Positions 4,193 to 52,732 of a stretch of DNA of 64,000 nucleotides are shown piece after piece; within the stretch, counting starts at the first letter, position 1, and every line of letters starts with the position of its first letter. Location of the stretch: the NCBI GenBank assembly GCA_964500975.1, contig CAZCQW010000004.1, forward strand, positions 9,816 to 73,815, read 5' to 3'. A program made the position numbers and the translations under genes. Source of the stretch: an uncultured Gammaproteobacteria bacterium. Its GTDB lineage: Bacteria; Patescibacteriota; Patescibacteriia; Patescibacteriales; UBA12465. The notes under the pieces are model-generated. The model was given only the letters and a program-made list of their open reading frames with translations. It had not been told where the DNA came from and searched no databases.

Positions 4193-5419
4193 ATGCGTGT
4201 TATTATTGCCTTTAAATTAGCTTTTAATTCGTTGCGCTTAAATCTTGTGAGAACAAGTTTAACGGTTTTAGGCGTGGTTATCGGAGTGGCGGCAATTATC
4301 GTTGTATTTTCAGCTGGTAGTATGCTTAGTAATTTAGTGTCGGGTGAAATTGAATCATACGGAACGAATGTTGTCCAAACTGAAACTAAGGCGCCAGGAA
4401 AAGCGGCCAATGGTTCAGTTGAGGTAACTTCTTTAAAAATTAGTGACATGGAAGCGATCAATAAGCTTAGGAATATTTCCATGAGCTATGCTGCTTCTTT
4501 AGCTCAGCAAAGAGTTAGCTATGAGTCACAAAGTAAAAAAGTTTTTATTTTTGGGACTAGCGCACCTTACGCAAAAATTGATACTAAAACGAAATTAGCG
4601 AGCGGTGAATTTTTTACTGAAGAAGATGATAAAAGTCAGGCCATGGTAGTTGTTTTAGGCTCCGCTCTAAAGGATGAATTATTTGGCAATCAAGATGCTA
4701 TTGGAAAATCCGTTAAACTTGGTACTAAAAAGTTTCAAGTAGTTGGTGTTTTAGAGGAGCAGGGTGGAGGGGCCTCTTTTCTTGATTTTGACAACATGGT
4801 TTATATCCCTATTAATACTTTGCACAAAAGAATTCTTGGTATTGATTATGCGATGTATTTTATGCACGAGGTTAAGGATATAAAGATTGCCGCTGATACA
4901 GCTGACGAAATTAAATCTCTTTTGCGTCAAAGACATGAAATTACTAATCCTGATAAAGATGATTTTAATGTTTCAACAATGGCAGAAATGATAGATACAT
5001 TAAGTACGGTAACTAATGCGGTTACTTATTTGTTGCTTGCCATTGTTTTAATTTCATTGTTAGTTGGTGGCGTCGGAATTATGAATATTATGTACGTTAC
5101 TGTGGTTGAAAGAACGCCGGAAATCGGTTTAAGAAAAGCGCTGGGGGCGACCAGGAAAGATGTTGTTTGGCAGTTTCTAATTGAATCTTTGTTAATTACA
5201 TTTTGGGGTTGGCTTCTTGGGGCTTTTATAGGTGTTTTAATTTCCTATTTATTGAACATAGCTGCCAGATATTTTGGCTTGGATTGGCAATTTAGTTTTC
5301 CTTGGCAGGGAATTGGTGCCTCGTTAATTTTTTCTTTGGTTTGCGGTCTTTTATTTGGTTATAGACCAGCTAAGCAAGCCGCCGCACTTGATCCAGTTGA
5401 AGCTTTAAGAATAGAATAG
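4193..5419 (+). CDS. FtsX/MacB-type ABC permease; the intact paralog.
   Basis: N-terminal TM helix, a periplasmic MacB_PCD-like domain, and a C-terminal FtsX 3-TM region carrying the LLVGGVGIMNIM motif. Confidence 0.8.
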   Translation: MRVIIAFKLAFNSLRLNLVRTSLTVLGVVIGVAAIIVVFSAGSMLSNLVSGEIESYGTNVVQTETKAPGKAANGSVEVTSLKISDMEAINKLRNISMSYAASLAQQRVSYESQSKKVFIFGTSAPYAKIDTKTKLASGEFFTEEDDKSQAMVVVLGSALKDELFGNQDAIGKSVKLGTKKFQVVGVLEEQGGGASFLDFDNMVYIPINTLHKRILGIDYAMYFMHEVKDIKIAADTADEIKSLLRQRHEITNPDKDDFNVSTMAEMIDTLSTVTNAVTYLLLAIVLISLLVGGVGIMNIMYVTVVERTPEIGLRKALGATRKDVVWQFLIESLLITFWGWLLGAFIGVLISYLLNIAARYFGLDWQFSFPWQGIGASLIFSLVCGLLFGYRPAKQAAALDPVEALRIE

Positions 5420-5574: not shown

Positions 5575-7986
5575 ATGAGTATTTATAAAATTGTTGCTAA
5601 CGATGGCACAATGGAAAATTTTTCCGAAGAAAAAATTGAAGCGAAACTAAAAATCATGGCCCAAGGACTTGATCACATTGATATAAATATAATTCTAAGT
5701 GAAATTAAAAGCAGTCTTTATGAGGGTATTAAAGTTAGTGAGCTTAAAAAAACAATAATTAATGCCGCTACATTTTTAATTGAACGACATTATAATTATT
5801 CCTATTTAGCCGCCCGCCTTTTAATTGACCAGTTATGTGAAGACGTTTTAGGTCTTGATTATGACAAGGAATTATTAGGCGAAGACTTAAGTCTAAAAAA
5901 ATATCGTCAAGGTTTTATCGATTATATTGGAAAAGGAATTAAATATCAGCTTTTAAACCCAGAGCTTGCTAATTTTGATTTAATGAAACTAGCCGCTGCT
6001 ATTGATAAAAATCGTGATAATAATTTTCAGTATTTAGGTGCGCAAACGATTTATGATAGATACTTACTAAAAACCCCTGTTAAGCCGCGCTCTATTTTTG
6101 AATTACCTCAGTGGATGTGGATGCGCATTGCGATGGGGCTTGCTTTAAAAGAAGATAAACGTGAAGACAGGGCGATTGAATTTTATAATTTAATGTCTCA
6201 ATTTCTACTTGTACCATCAACTCCAACACTATTTAACAGTGGAACGGTTAATAGTCAGCTAAGTTCATGTTTTCTAAATACGGTTGAGGATTCATTAATT
6301 GGGATATTTAAAAGTTTTTCTGTTGTTGCTCGGTTATCAAAATTGTCAGGTGGAATCGGGACTGACTGGACACCAGTTCGTTCTATGGGTTCAAAAATTA
6401 AAGGAACGAACGGTGATTCTCAAGGAATAATTCCATTTATTAAAATCTTTAATGATGTGGCGGTTGCGGTTAATCAGGGCGGTAAACGTCGAGGAGCTTT
6501 AGCGGCTTATCTTGAAGTTTGGCATAATGATATTGAAGAATTCTTGGAATTAAAAAAGAATACCGGCGATGAACGTCGTCGAGCTCATGATATTCATCCC
6601 GCCGTTTGGATTCCGGATTTATTTATGAAAAGAGTTTTAAGCGACGAAAACTGGACTTTGTTTTCGCCGAATGAAGTTCCGGGACTTCATGATTTATATG
6701 GAAAAAAATTCGAAGAAAAATACGAGGAATACGAAAGAGAGAATATGCCTGGAGCACGTAAATTGCCAGCCAAAGAATTGTGGAAGAAAATATTAACCAT
6801 GCTTTATGAAACTGGCCACCCGTGGATTACTTTTAAAGACCCATGTAATCTGCGCTCGCCTCAAGATCATGATGGCGTAATTCATAATTCAAATTTATGC
6901 ACAGAAATAACTCTAAATAATTCATTAGAGGAAACCGCAGTTTGTAATTTAGCGAGTTTGAATTTAAGTTTAATGGTTCGTGATGGGAAATTAGATAGCG
7001 ACTTAATTAAAGAAACGGTTGCGACTGGAATGCGTATGCTTGATAATGTGGTTGATATAAATTTTTATACAATTCCAGAAACAGAAAAATCCAATAATCG
7101 TCATAGACCGGTTGGGCTTGGCTTAATGGGTTACCAAGACGCTCTTTATCAGCTAGGAATTGATTTTGCGAGCGAAGAAAATTTAAAATTTGCCGATACT
7201 TCAATGGAGTTAATTTCGTATCATGTATTTTCGGCTAGTTCTGATTTGGCAAAAGAAAGAGGTTCTTACGAAACTTATGAGGGTAGTAAATGGAGTCGCG
7301 GAATATTGCCAATTGATACTTTAGAAATTCTTGAACAAGAAAGAGGGGTTAATTTAACTATTAATAAAGAGAGAACACTCGATTGGGATGCACTCAGAGA
7401 AAAAATAAGAATTCAAGGAATGCGTAATTCAAACTGTTTGGCGATTGCACCAACGGCGACTATTTCAAATATAACTGGTGTCGCTCCTTGCGTAGAGCCG
7501 ATATTTAAGAATATTTATAGTAAAGAGAATATGTCTGGAAGCTTTTTAGTGACCAATAAATACTTAGTTGATGATTTAATTAATGAGGGCTTATGGAATA
7601 AACAGACTTTAGATTTGATTAAATATAATAATGGATCAGTTGCAAGTATTAATTCAATCTCACCAAAATTAAAAAATAAATATAAGGAAACTTTTGAAAT
7701 TGATCCGTATTGGGTTGTTAAAGCGGCCGCTTATCGGGGTAAATGGATAGATCAAAGCGCTTCGACTAATATTTTTGTTTCTACTAGTAGTGGAAAAATG
7801 TTAAGTGATTTATACATTGATGCTTGGAAGACTGGTCTTAAAACTACTTATTACTTAAGAACACTTGCTGCCTCGCAAATCGCTAAAACAATTGAAATGC
7901 CGATTGAGACGACTCCTGAGACAGTTGTAAAAGTTGAGCCTAAAGCCTGTCTTATAAATAATCCAGATTGTGAGGCTTGCCAGTAA
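5575..7986 (+). CDS. nrdA: Ribonucleoside-diphosphate reductase alpha subunit, class I, with an N-terminal ATP cone.
   Basis: ATP cone (IVANDGTMENFSEEKIEAKL), an RNR large-subunit barrel, and a C-terminal Cys pair (CEAC). Length is 803 aa. Confidence 0.9.
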   Translation: MSIYKIVANDGTMENFSEEKIEAKLKIMAQGLDHIDINIILSEIKSSLYEGIKVSELKKTIINAATFLIERHYNYSYLAARLLIDQLCEDVLGLDYDKELLGEDLSLKKYRQGFIDYIGKGIKYQLLNPELANFDLMKLAAAIDKNRDNNFQYLGAQTIYDRYLLKTPVKPRSIFELPQWMWMRIAMGLALKEDKREDRAIEFYNLMSQFLLVPSTPTLFNSGTVNSQLSSCFLNTVEDSLIGIFKSFSVVARLSKLSGGIGTDWTPVRSMGSKIKGTNGDSQGIIPFIKIFNDVAVAVNQGGKRRGALAAYLEVWHNDIEEFLELKKNTGDERRRAHDIHPAVWIPDLFMKRVLSDENWTLFSPNEVPGLHDLYGKKFEEKYEEYERENMPGARKLPAKELWKKILTMLYETGHPWITFKDPCNLRSPQDHDGVIHNSNLCTEITLNNSLEETAVCNLASLNLSLMVRDGKLDSDLIKETVATGMRMLDNVVDINFYTIPETEKSNNRHRPVGLGLMGYQDALYQLGIDFASEENLKFADTSMELISYHVFSASSDLAKERGSYETYEGSKWSRGILPIDTLEILEQERGVNLTINKERTLDWDALREKIRIQGMRNSNCLAIAPTATISNITGVAPCVEPIFKNIYSKENMSGSFLVTNKYLVDDLINEGLWNKQTLDLIKYNNGSVASINSISPKLKNKYKETFEIDPYWVVKAAAYRGKWIDQSASTNIFVSTSSGKMLSDLYIDAWKTGLKTTYYLRTLAASQIAKTIEMPIETTPETVVKVEPKACLINNPDCEACQ

Positions 7987-8028
7987 TTGAGCCAAAATAA
8001 TTAACACATTTATTGATAATAATTGAAC

Positions 8029-44641: not shown

Positions 44642-44683
44642 CTTGATTTATTTATAATTTTCTTGTATTCTATAAATGTTATT

Positions 44684-45060
44684 AAGGTAAGCGGGCAATC
44701 GCTCTTTTTTAAAGTTTTTACTTTTTAGAGGAGAGGAAAGTCCGGACTTCGCCGCTTATTTATAAGCGAAATGATAGTGGGTAACGCCCACCGTCCGCTT
44801 CGCGCGGATAGGGACAGTGCCACAGAGACAATACTAATTTTGTAATTTATTACAAAATGAAAGGTGAAAAGAAATTAGGTGTTTTTCGAAGCTACTAATT
44901 TCGGCCTCCGGTGACGGAGATGCCGTGGTAAACCCTATCAGAAGCAAGAGCAAACATTTATGTTTACATAAATGACAAAGTAGCTCGCACGAGCTTATTA
45001 GCAATAATAAGCCAAGATAAATGATTGCTAGAACAGAATCCGGCTTATAGCTGCCTTAAT
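44684..45060 (+). ncRNA. rnpB: RNase P RNA, bacterial type A (M1 RNA).
   Basis: Universally conserved elements present: GAGGAAAGTCCGGACTTC (P4 5' strand), GGGTAACGCCCACC, ACAGTGCCACAGAGAC, AAACCC...AAGCAAG, and ACAGAATCCGGCTTATAG (P4 3' strand). A P1 stem pairs ttaaggtaagc with gcttat..gccttaa. Confidence 0.85.
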
Positions 45061-45086
45061 AATAAATGTATTTATTAAATTTATAT

Positions 45087-50293: not shown

Positions 50294-50319
50294 ATACGTC
50301 TAAATGAGGCGTATTTTTT
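50294..50319 (+). terminator. Rho-independent terminator.
   Basis: atacgtc-taaatgag-gcgtat hairpin followed by a T6 run. Confidence 0.6.
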
Positions 50320-50336: not shown

Positions 50337-50400
50337 TTGACATTTTCTAATATATGTGATATAATGCTCTTGTTCGTGTAAATTGGGTGGCACGATAAAC
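50337..50400 (+). promoter_or_regulatory. Consensus sigma-70 promoter (TTGACA-N17-TATAAT), followed 7 nt later by a conserved 28-nt inverted-repeat leader element.
   Basis: ttgaca at 50337..50342, tataat at 50360..50365, then TTCGTGTAAAttgggtggCACGATAAAC at 50373..50400, in which TCGTG and CACGA form an inverted repeat. Confidence 0.6.
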
Positions 50401-50475
50401 GCTATGTAAATAGCTAAGGGCCGTCAAAGCCTGGAAAGACATCCAAAAAAAAGTTCATTAAAAAATCAATTTATC

Positions 50476-51831
50476 ATGAAAAAAAGTTCAAAGGGAATCA
50501 TTAATTCGATTCTAAGTTTCGTTTTTCTTTTTGCTTTACCAATTATTATTGTGGCAATTATGTTTATAGCTCTTAGCAAATCATTTGCGATTGGGCTTAC
50601 CGTTATTATTTCATTGCTTGTTGTTGAGCTATTGCTCGGCCGGAAATATCGTGAATCATTTTATTGGTCAGAATACAGAAATTTTAGATTCTGGGGAATG
50701 ACGGGAGAAGCTAAATTTAACAAGTACTTAAACATATTGTTTAATGCTACTAAGGTTATAACTGTTCTCGGACTGCTTTGTCTTATATGTCAAAATTTTT
50801 CGGAAATACTAAATCCTTTCGGAGGCTTAGGCAAGACTATCCTGGTTTGTTCGACACTGATCGGAATTCTTATTGTGTGTTCTGGCGGTTATAATAAACG
50901 TGGTAATTATTTCGAAAGCTATGAAAAAGTTAGGGCAAGTTTTGCCCTCGCAATATTACTAACGATTGTCAGTTTTGTCTATATGACTTTTGGAACACAG
51001 TTAATCTGGATTCCACTTCTCGCAACTATAATGCTTACGTTGTTTGAGGGTTATGAAGAACTTGGGGAAAGATTTAATCAGGAAGAATATGCTTTTGGAG
51101 TATATTCGGCTGGTGCAGCTTTTTCTGCGGCGATAATAAGCACAATTATCCAATTCTGGTCTCACATTGCTTATTTCTTTGTTACTATCTGGAATTTTAT
51201 TGTAAAAGTTGGAACTTATGAGATTATTTCCGGCGGACAAGTTTGGGTAGCTGTATTAATTATTAGTATGTTTGTTACTCTAATTTCTGTTAGCAGAAGT
51301 CGAGGAAGAAAAGATAGAGCTAAGAGAGAGGCTCTAAAATTACAAAACGAAAAAGAAGCCGACGCTAAAAGAGAAAGAGGAATTAAGGAAAATGAAAAAA
51401 TTGCGGCAAAGGAGGCCGAAGAAGCTTTTAAGGAAAAAACTATTAAAATGGTTGAAGCATTAGTAGATTCTACCAAAGACAGGGATGCTAAAATAGATGA
51501 AATAGTTATGCTTTCTAAAGCAGTGTATAAGTTTGGCTATAGTTACCTCAATCGCTTTTCCGTGAAATCTCTCGCAGGTATCGTTTTAAGTAATTTTTTT
51601 ACTATATCTGAAATTAAAAAGAGGATAGTCTGGGGCGCAGATTTTGAATACGTTTTGTGTATGTACGCAGATTTGTATCAAAGAAATTACGAAGACGCTG
51701 ACTTAGACAAAATTATTAGCTTGTTTAATTGTCTGGTTAGCTATCTTAGCTCTTCAAAAGAATTTTCGGGATATACAAAAATTGTAGAAAAAATTCAGGA
51801 AACAAAAATCCCGGTAAACTGGGAAAAATAA
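50476..51831 (+). CDS. Hypothetical polytopic membrane protein of 451 aa, with a charged coiled-coil insert (KREALKLQNEKEADAKRERGIKENEKIAAKEAEEAFKEK).
   Basis: Multiple TM helices and no recognisable catalytic motif. Confidence 0.4.
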   Translation: MKKSSKGIINSILSFVFLFALPIIIVAIMFIALSKSFAIGLTVIISLLVVELLLGRKYRESFYWSEYRNFRFWGMTGEAKFNKYLNILFNATKVITVLGLLCLICQNFSEILNPFGGLGKTILVCSTLIGILIVCSGGYNKRGNYFESYEKVRASFALAILLTIVSFVYMTFGTQLIWIPLLATIMLTLFEGYEELGERFNQEEYAFGVYSAGAAFSAAIISTIIQFWSHIAYFFVTIWNFIVKVGTYEIISGGQVWVAVLIISMFVTLISVSRSRGRKDRAKREALKLQNEKEADAKRERGIKENEKIAAKEAEEAFKEKTIKMVEALVDSTKDRDAKIDEIVMLSKAVYKFGYSYLNRFSVKSLAGIVLSNFFTISEIKKRIVWGADFEYVLCMYADLYQRNYEDADLDKIISLFNCLVSYLSSSKEFSGYTKIVEKIQETKIPVNWEK

Positions 51832-51856
51832 AGTTCAAAACGTTCAAAATATAGCA

Positions 51857-51879
51857 GTAGACCTAGTCTACTACTTTTT
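51857..51879 (+). terminator. Rho-independent terminator.
   Basis: gtagac-cta-gtctac hairpin followed by a T5 run. Confidence 0.7.
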
Positions 51880-51887
51880 AATTAGTG

Positions 51888-51950
51888 TTGACATATTCTA
51901 ATAATCATTGTATAATTTATTATTCGTGTAAAAAGACTAACACGATAAAC
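51888..51950 (+). promoter_or_regulatory. Second copy of the same cassette: TTGACA-N17-TATAAT, followed 6 nt later by TTCGTGTAAAaagactaaCACGATAAAC.
   Basis: ttgaca at 51888..51893, tataat at 51911..51916, and the element at 51923..51950. Its two 10-nt arms are identical to those of the copy at 50373..50400. Confidence 0.6.
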
Positions 51951-51982
51951 ACAAATTTAATGTTAATTAAAAATAAGTAATC

Positions 51983-52501
51983 ATGACAGCAAATAACGTT
52001 TCTATTGAGCAGGTAATCCTGAACGTTTCGAAAAAAATTGTCGATAAGAAAAAAACAAGAATTATGTTTTTTATTATCTTCTTAATTTTTTCGATTATCG
52101 TATATATTTTTTTGCCAGAATTTCGTGCAGCCTCTGAAAAAAATGACTCAGAAATGACCATTTTAGCTTTGGCAATGAGTGGACTTTTCTCAATTGCTGG
52201 TGTAAGTTTATTATTTACAATTTTACCAGCACGATTAAATTTTCATGCTAAACCGAAAGAATTAATTGCGGAAATTGATAATGCTCTTGATGAGTATTTA
52301 ACCGAAATGAATATCACTCTTTACCGCTACAAGAACTCTCTTGAAGCACTTAAGAAAATTAAAAATCAATCACCAGAAATTAGAAAAAAAATTTCTGAAG
52401 TTGAAAAGGATATTTGCCGCATTAAAGTACACCTTGAAAAAATCGATCAGAAACTTGATTCAATCAAGAAAAATACGGTCGATTTAGCTCTAGCTAGTTA
52501 A
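51983..52501 (+). CDS. Hypothetical membrane protein, 172 aa.
   Basis: One or two TM helices followed by a coiled coil; it shares the promoter and leader cassette with 50476..51831. Confidence 0.4.
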   Translation: MTANNVSIEQVILNVSKKIVDKKKTRIMFFIIFLIFSIIVYIFLPEFRAASEKNDSEMTILALAMSGLFSIAGVSLLFTILPARLNFHAKPKELIAEIDNALDEYLTEMNITLYRYKNSLEALKKIKNQSPEIRKKISEVEKDICRIKVHLEKIDQKLDSIKKNTVDLALAS

Positions 52502-52524
52502 TTAGCTAAACTAACAAAAACACA

Positions 52525-52556
52525 AAGGCCATCCTTTAAAAAGATGGCCTTTTTTA
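52525..52556. terminator. Terminator, probably bidirectional, between a membrane-protein gene and the convergent tRNA-Leu.
   Basis: aaaggccatc-ctttaaaaa-gatggcct hairpin followed by a T6 run. Confidence 0.8.
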
Positions 52557-52560
52557 ATTG

Positions 52561-52644
52561 TACCGCGAGAGGGACTTGAACCCTCATGGTATCGCTACCA
52601 CACGAGTTTGAGTCGTGCATGTCTACCAGTTCCATCATCGCGGC
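52561..52644 (-). tRNA. tRNA-Leu with anticodon CAA; type II, with a long variable arm.
   Basis: The minus strand reads GCCGCGA-TG-ATGGAACTGGTAGACAT-G-CACGA-CTCAAAC-TCGTG-TGGTAGCGATACCAT-GAGGGTTCAAGTCCCTC-TCGCGGT-A. It has a 7-bp acceptor stem, an anticodon loop CU-CAA-AC and a T-loop TTCAAGT. CCA is not encoded. Confidence 0.85.
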
Positions 52645-52732
52645 TTTCTAATTACAAAATTTAGTATAATAAATATTAGTTCAATTGTCAAAGATTTAGC
52701 TTTAAGATATAATGAACTTATCAATAAATTTT

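Follow-up and report, generated by a model that had tools for sequence, protein, structure and literature searches.

In the fluoride riboswitch (crcB motif, RF01734), which binds F- via Mg2+, the loop of a 5' hairpin pairs with a 3' strand, such that an H-type pseudoknot is formed with one hairpin situated in between. Other compact pseudoknot aptamers (preQ1-II/III, SAM-II/V, guanidine-III) act on translation initiation without a terminator, and loop triples can conserve their helices; in these classes, the Shine-Dalgarno sequence is sequestered within the pseudoknot. Furthermore, 5'-terminal stem-loops protect bacterial mRNAs (e.g., the ompA and ermC leaders), and in the ompA, ermC and aprE stabilisers the stem-loop lies within 1-2 nucleotides (nt) of the 5' end. 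For the orphan riboswitch candidates described by Breaker and Weinberg, the evidence is of the same type as that presented here, namely a conserved, covarying intergenic structure that always precedes one gene family in the sense direction (PMC7266159, PMC11109978). In the Patescibacteria (Candidate Phyla Radiation, CPR), regulation is very poorly understood; in the literature searched, the sole mention of riboswitches for this group was their proposed use as a genetic tool (PMC11665869), and no native, group-specific class was found. The element described here was detected in a 64,000-nt stretch of DNA (contig CAZCQW010000004.1, positions 9,816 to 73,815; hereafter the window, in which all coordinates are given unless a locus is named). 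It precedes two consecutive membrane-protein genes on the + strand, in one full and one truncated copy (copy 1 and copy 2) of what sequence comparison suggests to be a new, well-supported family of structured leaders and a riboswitch candidate.

Both genes, coding for proteins of 451 and 172 amino acids (aa), are preceded by a promoter with exact consensus hexamers (12 of 12 positions) at 17-nt spacing, as the original prediction had stated. No other perfect TTGACA-N17-TATAAT exists in the window, and with one mismatch allowed there are seven, compared to 1.1 expected. The -10 hexamer is followed, after 7 nt in copy 1 and 6 nt in copy 2, by the 28-nt inverted-repeat element TTCGTGTAAA-N8-CACGATAAAC (50373-50400 and 51923-51950), which likewise proved to be as predicted, both arms being identical among the copies (10/10 each) and the centre agreeing at two of eight sites. 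Even with up to three mismatches, only these two sites are found (0.04 expected; none of 100 shuffles reached two), and the core TCGTG-N8..16-CACGA does not occur in the window outside of them. The promoters are of the sigma-70 type according to hexamers, spacing and orthologous position: of the 16 full leaders compared (see below), 15 are preceded by a TTGACA-like -35 element and TG-n-TAnnnT at 17-nt spacing, the -10 region of locus L021 being less clear, and the predicted transcription start is occupied by G or A in 15 of 16. Upstream of promoter 1, a hairpin followed by a T-run, which the terminator scan did not list and which precedes the promoter in the syntenic loci as well, appears to isolate the promoter-leader unit from the gene of a 118-aa protein.

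The 28-mer had been regarded as a self-contained cassette. It turned out to be hairpin P1 plus the following junction J1/2 of a pseudoknotted RNA of about 90 nt (structured unit of copy 1: 50372-50463), in which UGGGUG in the P1 loop pairs with CAUCCA about 50 nt downstream, two further hairpins (P2, P3) are enclosed, and a conserved tail with the consensus G-U-W-C-W-U-U-W-A-A-A follows. A covariance model built from 13 leaders recognises all 16 full leaders, three of them outside the build, with E = 4e-8 to 7e-23, copy 1 scoring 99 bits and copy 2 28.4 bits (E = 2e-4); beyond these, the 164-176 kb of window and loci contained no other credible match. As MAFFT and the model misregistered P2 in four sequences, all 16 leaders were parsed by hand and checked against the DNA. 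Across the 16 sequences, standard base pairs are formed in 92.6% of the cells versus 29-43% with slid partners, 12 of 23 pairs have exchanges in both partners, and none of 500 shuffles attained the covariation score of the real alignment. RNAalifold, although unable to draw pseudoknots, picks the long-range helix, P2 and P3 unaided.

Concerning the individual helices, P2 comprises 4-6 bp with mostly GNRA-type loops and exists in six versions, all of them fully paired (GCUAU/AUAGC, AUCGCU/GGCGAU, AACC/GGUU, GUUAC/GUAAC, GCAAU/AUUGC and CCUUC/GAAGG). P3 (4-6 bp, A-rich loop) is paired in every cell of the manual parse, with three to five pair types at most positions, and for each of the six modelled pairs, both partners are exchanged in some members of the family. 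The pseudoknot helix (alignment columns 15-20:80-85) is 97.9% paired with two pairs changing on both sides; by manual parse, 15 or 16 of the 16 sequences are paired at every position, with exchanges of U-A to C-G and of G-C to A-U, and pair 18:82 is represented by G-U, G-C or A-U. P2, P3 and the pseudoknot are thus demonstrated by covariation, whereas UCGUG/CACG of P1 is invariant in all 16 leaders: four P1 pairs never vary, one is lost in two sequences that lack the A, and the closing pair is U-G in 14 leaders and U-A and C-G in one each. Unpaired A residues are invariant as well, i.e., UAAA in J1/2, AA in J2/3 and AAUA in J3, and L3 is A-rich. P1 and the long-range helix would be geometrically compatible as an H-type pseudoknot with a first loop of 3-7 nt, no nucleotide between the helices and a long third loop. 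A conserved, covarying structure of this kind is what is expected of an aptamer. Since G-U pairs occur and the closing pair of P1 alternates among U-G, U-A and C-G, an RNA read from the + strand is favoured over a DNA palindrome, and the riboregulator that had been offered as one of two options is the better one.

The exact 28-mer was scanned in 185,579 species genomes (one per species), in metagenomes and in viruses. Three matches were found among the species genomes, all on contigs of metagenome-assembled genomes; the metagenome scan gave one real locus, identical to one of these three, and one chance match inside a coding region; the viral scan gave none. Each real match is situated behind a TTGACA/TG-n-TATAAT-like promoter and opens a leader of about 85 nt. 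Past the 28-mer, around 60 nt align with copy 1 of the window, not with copy 2, and the gene located 3' codes for a homologue of the 451-aa protein. By a second route, which is free of DNA-pattern bias, homologues of the 451-aa protein were sought, a word-indexed search giving nine and a profile search of that index one more, and the upstream DNA of those fetched was inspected; an exhaustive profile search puts the family at 157 cluster representatives at E<=1e-3. With protein identities from 54% down to 24-28%, all 15 other fetched homologues possess the leader directly upstream, behind the same type of promoter; those fetched by protein are loci L006, L009-L012, L014, L015, L017, L018, L021 and L023. 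The conserved neighbourhood is GT4-GT4-MnmA-118aa-[gene]-tRNA-Leu-ParA-ParB-DnaE. At least two other neighbourhoods also carry the leader, L021 being an example of a different one, so that all 16 full leaders lie sense-oriented between promoter and 451-aa homologue in at least three neighbourhoods. This consistent position in the 5' untranslated region (UTR) of a coherent set of genes is that expected of a riboswitch. In L011 (4867-8425), two tandem paralogues of 455 and 435 aa with 28% identity are each equipped with a promoter and a full leader of their own, one of an a-type and one of a divergent b-type, the latter being also found in L023.

Some peculiarities of single loci may be added. 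One of the homologues is labelled 'Patescibacteria group bacterium' at NCBI. In L004 (3529-4794; the same as L003), the membrane-protein gene is split into open reading frames (ORFs) of 271 and 105 aa by a frameshift, pseudogenisation or an assembly error, with promoter and leader intact. In L001, a Rep-like ORF and a serine recombinase of 513 aa (29-2705) are located 1.7-4 kb upstream of the leader, and the unit may adjoin, or sit on, a mobile element; for around 2.2 kb downstream of the gene (5742-8000), no + strand ORF of at least 60 aa is listed.

The organization of the leader is most similar to that of the fluoride riboswitch: a pseudoknot joins the loop of the first hairpin to the 3' tail, J1/2 is A-rich and ends in AAC, the pseudoknot strand opens with AUGG, and both RNAs occupy the 5' UTR of membrane-protein genes. 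Despite this general similarity, there are differences. Compared to the Rfam consensus (GGcGAUGGaGUU.CgCC..uuAACCGCC..GGCUGAUGACUCCUAC), with its conserved blocks GAUGG, CUGAUGA and CCUAC, the leader shares only AUGG and AAC; it contains GGAAAUA-CAUCC-AAA. The GAUGA and CCUAC blocks, which are absent from the leader, hold the A-U 'linchpin' pair (PMC8752731). The leader possesses two internal hairpins and not one, as well as 3-7 extra nt on the 5' side of the pseudoknot strand. Unlike the fluoride riboswitch, it has no terminator platform, and the genes located 3' of it are neither CrcB nor CLC-F nor others of the fluoride set (crcB, eriC-F, eno and others), no Pfam or NCBIfam match being obtained. 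Membership in this class was rejected, as RF01734 (gathering score 34 bits) misses the leader, the same tool finding true examples at 50-54 bits, and the leader model in turn misses the genuine fluoride riboswitches of L025 and L029. The leader may work like the fluoride class; it is not a detectable member of it. Of the two reference riboswitches (L025, 610-676; L029, 234-303 on the - strand), one stems from a 4.09-Mb Acinetobacter baumannii record labelled as a plasmid and the other precedes a DHHA2-USP-eno-gpmA-crcB operon on a plasmid of Pantoea; no fluoride riboswitch was present at the plasmid crcB loci examined first.

Further known RNAs correspond even less. At the gathering threshold, Rfam 15 gives no match to the leader in the whole window, and at E<=10, the 171 nt around leader 1 and the loci L009, L010, L017 and L018 yield only chance matches (snoZ39, 6A), none recurring at the leader. 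Neither preQ1-II/III nor SAM-II/V nor guanidine-III, all of which are represented in Rfam, matches it; in contrast to these classes, the leader contains no Shine-Dalgarno sequence, and its pseudoknot ends 21-45 nt before the start codon. Equally to the ompA, ermC and aprE stabilisers, P1 lies next to the predicted 5' end, and it is the sole structure left in copy 2, but those stabilisers are not invariant in sequence and have no conserved pseudoknot. As far as Rfam 15 and the literature searches show, the leader is not among the collections of orphan motifs, and it is confined to genomes of Patescibacteria type; the literature searched for riboswitch motifs of CPR bacteria contained nothing corresponding to it, which, given the limited coverage of the search, is absence of evidence.

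A global alignment of copy 1 (50337-50478) with copy 2 (51888-51985) covers the entire stretch between the -35 hexamer and the ATG and is interrupted by only one gap, of 41 nt, which takes out the 3' half of P2, P3, J3 and the 3' strand of the pseudoknot. The 5' strand of the pseudoknot has decayed within the variable centre; the arms, including UAAAC, agree at 20 of 20 sites, and the GTTMATTAAAAA tail is kept. The remaining P1 of copy 2, closed by U-A, has a folding energy of -5.6 kcal/mol (z = -2.2), P1 energies ranging from -5.6 to -6.0 kcal/mol, and starts 2 nt past the predicted +1. Because it exhibits a-type features (AAAA at the start of the loop, CACGA-UAAAC), copy 2 can be traced to a leader resembling copy 1 and not to the b-type one of L011 and L023. 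P1-only copies were found in none of the fetched loci, and copy 2 is unique so far. Judged from the alignment, it is an old, lineage-specific duplicate of the whole promoter-leader-start region with an internal deletion, in which, as the sequence shows, P1 and J1/2 have selectively survived; this may reflect a function that P1 has without the pseudoknot. The tight co-regulation of both genes that had been proposed does not follow: copy 2 has lost the presumed sensing part (the 3' half of P2, P3 and both pseudoknot strands), so that the two genes could not answer alike to a signal read by the full leader. The original interpretation is thus partly supported, its promoter and RNA element being correct and its shared operator incorrect.

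We consider it probable, with considerable reservation, that the leader is a new riboswitch-like cis-regulatory RNA, with copy 2 as a deleted duplicate and P1 as its 5' hairpin. The near-consensus extended -10 promoter would fire constitutively, and the transcript, starting 1-2 nt before P1, would fold into P1, P2, P3 and the pseudoknot, the latter serving as the aptamer of a regulator dedicated to one family of Patescibacteria membrane proteins. As the terminator scan found no intrinsic terminator within the leader and Shine-Dalgarno sequences are apparently not used (none is recognisable upstream of 38 long ORFs of the window, the run-ups being A/T-rich), control would act after transcription initiation. 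The folded or ligand-bound state could change the loading of 30S subunits on the unstructured A/U-rich run-up that spans the 21-45 nt from the end of the pseudoknot to the start codon, or, alternatively, the accessibility of the 5' end to decay, the signal being a ligand by which the pseudoknot would be stabilised. The 172-aa gene would be driven without the sensor: of its leader, the 5'-terminal P1 hairpin and the A-rich tail are left behind a strong promoter, and this P1 probably stabilises the 5' end or offers a binding site to a P1-specific factor. A more specific version, which we regard as tentative and somewhat more likely to fail than to hold, is that of an undescribed, Patescibacteria-specific riboswitch class that senses a small molecule or ion and switches on the membrane proteins of around 440 aa found as the 157 representatives; it might be distantly related in structure to the fluoride aptamer, from which an additional hairpin would set it apart.

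Several observations weigh against a riboswitch. No expression platform is recognisable in the leader, and the downstream proteins belong to no known family, so that the gene context yields no clue to a ligand. P1 is almost invariant over proteins that are only 24-28% identical, which is unusual for a plain helix and leaves it with little support from covariation, and the identical arms in the sensor-less copy 2 agree with a factor acting in trans no worse than with a ligand. The covariation of the other helices is drawn from 16 related sequences in an alignment partly fitted to the model, and the transcription start is predicted from promoter geometry. Pairing of the 5' arm with the start codon ranks first of 36 in the window only and falls within the bulk elsewhere; for the 3' arm plus J1/2, such pairing likewise does not exceed background in most leaders.

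Further candidate mechanisms were considered. Sequestration of the start codon by the 5' arm (UUCGUG:CAUGAA) or by CACGAUAAA:UUUAUCAUG gives duplex energies not above background in most leaders and is kept merely as a weak idea. An upstream ORF in the tail (ATGTTCATTAAA) was rejected, as its ATG exists in no more than about 7 of the 13 leaders compared first, and pairing of the tail motif GUUCAU with AUGAA was not kept in view of GUACUUU variants. The base preceding the start codon is T in 29 of the 38 window ORFs and C in three, two of which are the 451-aa and 172-aa genes.

Mainly because P1 hardly varies and has survived in copy 2, a leader bound by a protein or a trans-acting RNA is kept as an alternative, an unlikely one in our view. 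The factor would read P1 and UAAA, the pseudoknot, P2 and P3 would modulate or compete, and copy 2 would have kept the binding site, such that both genes stand under the same factor. A sequence-specific site is expected to behave in the way UCGUG/CACG does, which remains constant in 16 of 16 leaders while P2, P3 and the pseudoknot covary, and whose arms are preserved in copy 2 though their neighbours have diverged to roughly random. However, in H-type pseudoknot riboswitches, sequence is likewise conserved in helices that engage in base triples, and dense invariant unpaired A residues with a compact pseudoknot are typical of self-contained aptamers. Moreover, no linked gene is a candidate for an RNA-binding regulator: that of the 118-aa protein upstream keeps its synteny in only a part of the family, is absent in L017, L018 and L021, and codes for no nucleic-acid-binding domain.

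Very improbable is a mere 5'-terminal stabilising hairpin, with the rest of the leader as non-switching spacer and both genes constitutively high. It would account for the fact that P1 lies, in every copy, 1-2 nt away from the predicted 5' end and for the retention of just the hairpin in copy 2. A stabiliser, however, needs a stem and not an invariant sequence, and the pseudoknot, two covarying hairpins and about 20 invariant unpaired nt would be superfluous, yet they are kept over proteins of 24-28% identity.

The inverted repeat had been taken for either a hairpin at the 5' end of the mRNA or a dimeric operator. The former stands, as the repeat lies at the predicted 5' end, whereas the latter, a DNA operator overlapping +1 by which a dimeric repressor would hold two strong promoters off, is very improbable. 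Its attraction is the location of TCGTG-N12-CACGA at +2 to +24 of two consensus promoters, with arms kept and centre variable between the window copies. Across the family, by contrast, the centre is conserved and pairs with a distant strand, and the flanks are asymmetric, since TAAA follows 3' of both half-sites on the same strand (inside the left arm, outside the right arm). In 14 of 16 leaders, the mirrored position T/G breaks the palindrome and gives U-G in the RNA, and the half-site centres are 17 bp apart and thus not on one face of the helix. The two-fold symmetric half-sites, free spacer and cognate regulator of a dimeric-repressor operator are therefore not found; as to the cognate DNA-binding protein that had been suggested, no regulator gene was found linked to the element in the fetched loci.

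A recent local duplication without functional constraint, the case named beforehand as refuting the original prediction, can practically be dismissed despite the full-length alignment of the copies, since the flanks are clearly less alike than the arms (discriminator 1/6, centre 2/8, 29-nt promoter block of hexamers and spacer 22/29 with identical hexamers, upstream sequence unrelated, arms 20/20) and the element is conserved in 16 leaders from many genomes, by which this reading had already been refuted.

As to two further checks that had been proposed, 28-mers in other genomes, apart from the chance match, continue into the same leader, and folding with covariation supports P2, P3 and the pseudoknot, P1 being nearly invariant. 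If the leader is a riboswitch, the proteins of around 440 aa would be the cell's transporter or sensor for its ligand, and the copy reduced to P1 would testify to a second role of the invariant 5' hairpin, one that does not depend on the sensor. The fluoride and guanidine riboswitches revealed transporter functions in this way, and the identity of the ligand would likewise indicate what the membrane protein handles. The structured leader is an experimental handle on an opaque membrane-protein family of many CPR genomes and shows how control after initiation might work without Shine-Dalgarno sequences, and the internally deleted copy 2 provides a natural sensor-less control for separating the role of the 5' hairpin from that of the pseudoknot. 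An RNA model would also improve annotation, as gene callers place starts inside the leader: in L006 (4990-5095), the public call P0002 (477 aa) starts at an ATG inside the P1 loop, its first 30 or so residues being translated leader, and the genuine start codon is an ATG located around position 5091.

Table 1. Features of the two promoter-leader units and adjoining genes (positions in the 64,000-nt window)
Feature	Position	Strand	Details
Terminator-like hairpin of upstream 118-aa gene	50294-50319	+	ATACGTC/GGCGTAT stem, then T6; read from sequence
Promoter 1	50337-50365	+	TTGACA-N17-TATAAT, 12/12 hexamer match; TG at -15/-14 (extended -10)
Predicted transcription start 1	50372	+	Purine 7 nt after -10, 2 nt before P1; predicted from promoter geometry
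P1 hairpin	50374-50395	+	UCGUGU (50374-50379) pairs with GCACGA (50390-50395); loop AAAU + UGGGUG
Pseudoknot 5' strand UGGGUG	50384-50389	+	In P1 loop; pairs with 50440-50445
Junction J1/2, UAAAC	50396-50400	+	UAAA in 15/16 leaders (L010: UAGA)
P2 hairpin	50401-50414	+	GCUAU-GUAA-AUAGC; GNRA-type loop
P3 hairpin	50418-50432	+	GGGC-CGUCAAA-GCCU; A-rich loop
J3 GGAAAGA and pseudoknot 3' strand CAUCCA (50440-50445)	50433-50445	+	RNAalifold, pair counts
Conserved tail and run-up to start codon	50446-50475	+	GUUCAUUAAAA motif at 50453-50463
451-aa polytopic membrane protein gene	50476-51831	+	About 7-8 transmembrane segments, charged coiled coil, C-terminal domain of ~110 aa
Intrinsic terminator after 451-aa gene	51853-51879	+	AGCAGTAGACCTAGTCTACTACT, then T5
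Promoter 2	51888-51916	+	TTGACA-N17-TATAAT, 12/12 hexamer match; no TG motif
Copy 2, P1 and J1/2	51924-51950	+	UCGUGU-AAAAAGACUA-ACACGA-UAAAC; loop without pseudoknot strand
Rest of short leader 2	51951-51982	+	P2 5'-half remnant ACAAATTTAAT, then GTTAATTAAAAA tail and TAAGTAATC run-up
172-aa protein gene	51983-52501	+	Two transmembrane segments, coiled coil
Hairpin terminator common to 172-aa gene (+) and tRNA-Leu (-)	52524-52552	.	13-bp stem listed on - strand; T-runs on both sides

The features of both units are given in Table 1. The tail and run-up of leader 1 are A/U-rich, contain no Shine-Dalgarno sequence and are unpaired in most minimum-free-energy folds. Both ORFs are real, with the hydrophobic segments that their description as membrane proteins requires. 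Neither protein gave a meaningful match in Pfam, NCBIfam, PADLOC, PHROGs or PDB profiles, and Foldseek against PDB with the predicted structure returned nothing below E = 0.1. In the AlphaFold2 model of the 451-aa protein (predicted local distance difference test score, pLDDT, 64.6), the transmembrane part reaches about 50, and the C-terminal domain is confidently predicted. Homologues of the 172-aa protein (53-56% identical) are present in L010 and L011 directly behind the gene of the large family and have no promoter or leader of their own; in L011, the homologue (177 aa) begins 12 nt after the tandem paralogues. The terminator stem of the 451-aa gene (CAGCAG...CUGCUG) is kept in L001, L006, L009-L011, L014 and L015; that of L010 has no T-run, and a 170-aa gene follows directly.

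Downstream of the 172-aa gene, in the region 52560-52713, tRNA-Leu(CAA) is situated on the - strand with the promoter TTGACA-N17-TATACT at 52691..52663, back to back with the parA promoter TTGTCA-N17-TATAAT (52685-52713), such that the -35 hexamers overlap; this arrangement is kept in L006, L011 and L012. The start of parA listed at 52712 lies inside the -10 hexamer, and the real start is therefore probably located around 20 nt downstream. Upstream in the window, a class A RNase P RNA (44683-45062, + strand, 195 bits) ends 4 nt before the first ATG (45066) of a sugar-transferase ORF of 478 aa, the true start of which is for this reason probably further downstream.

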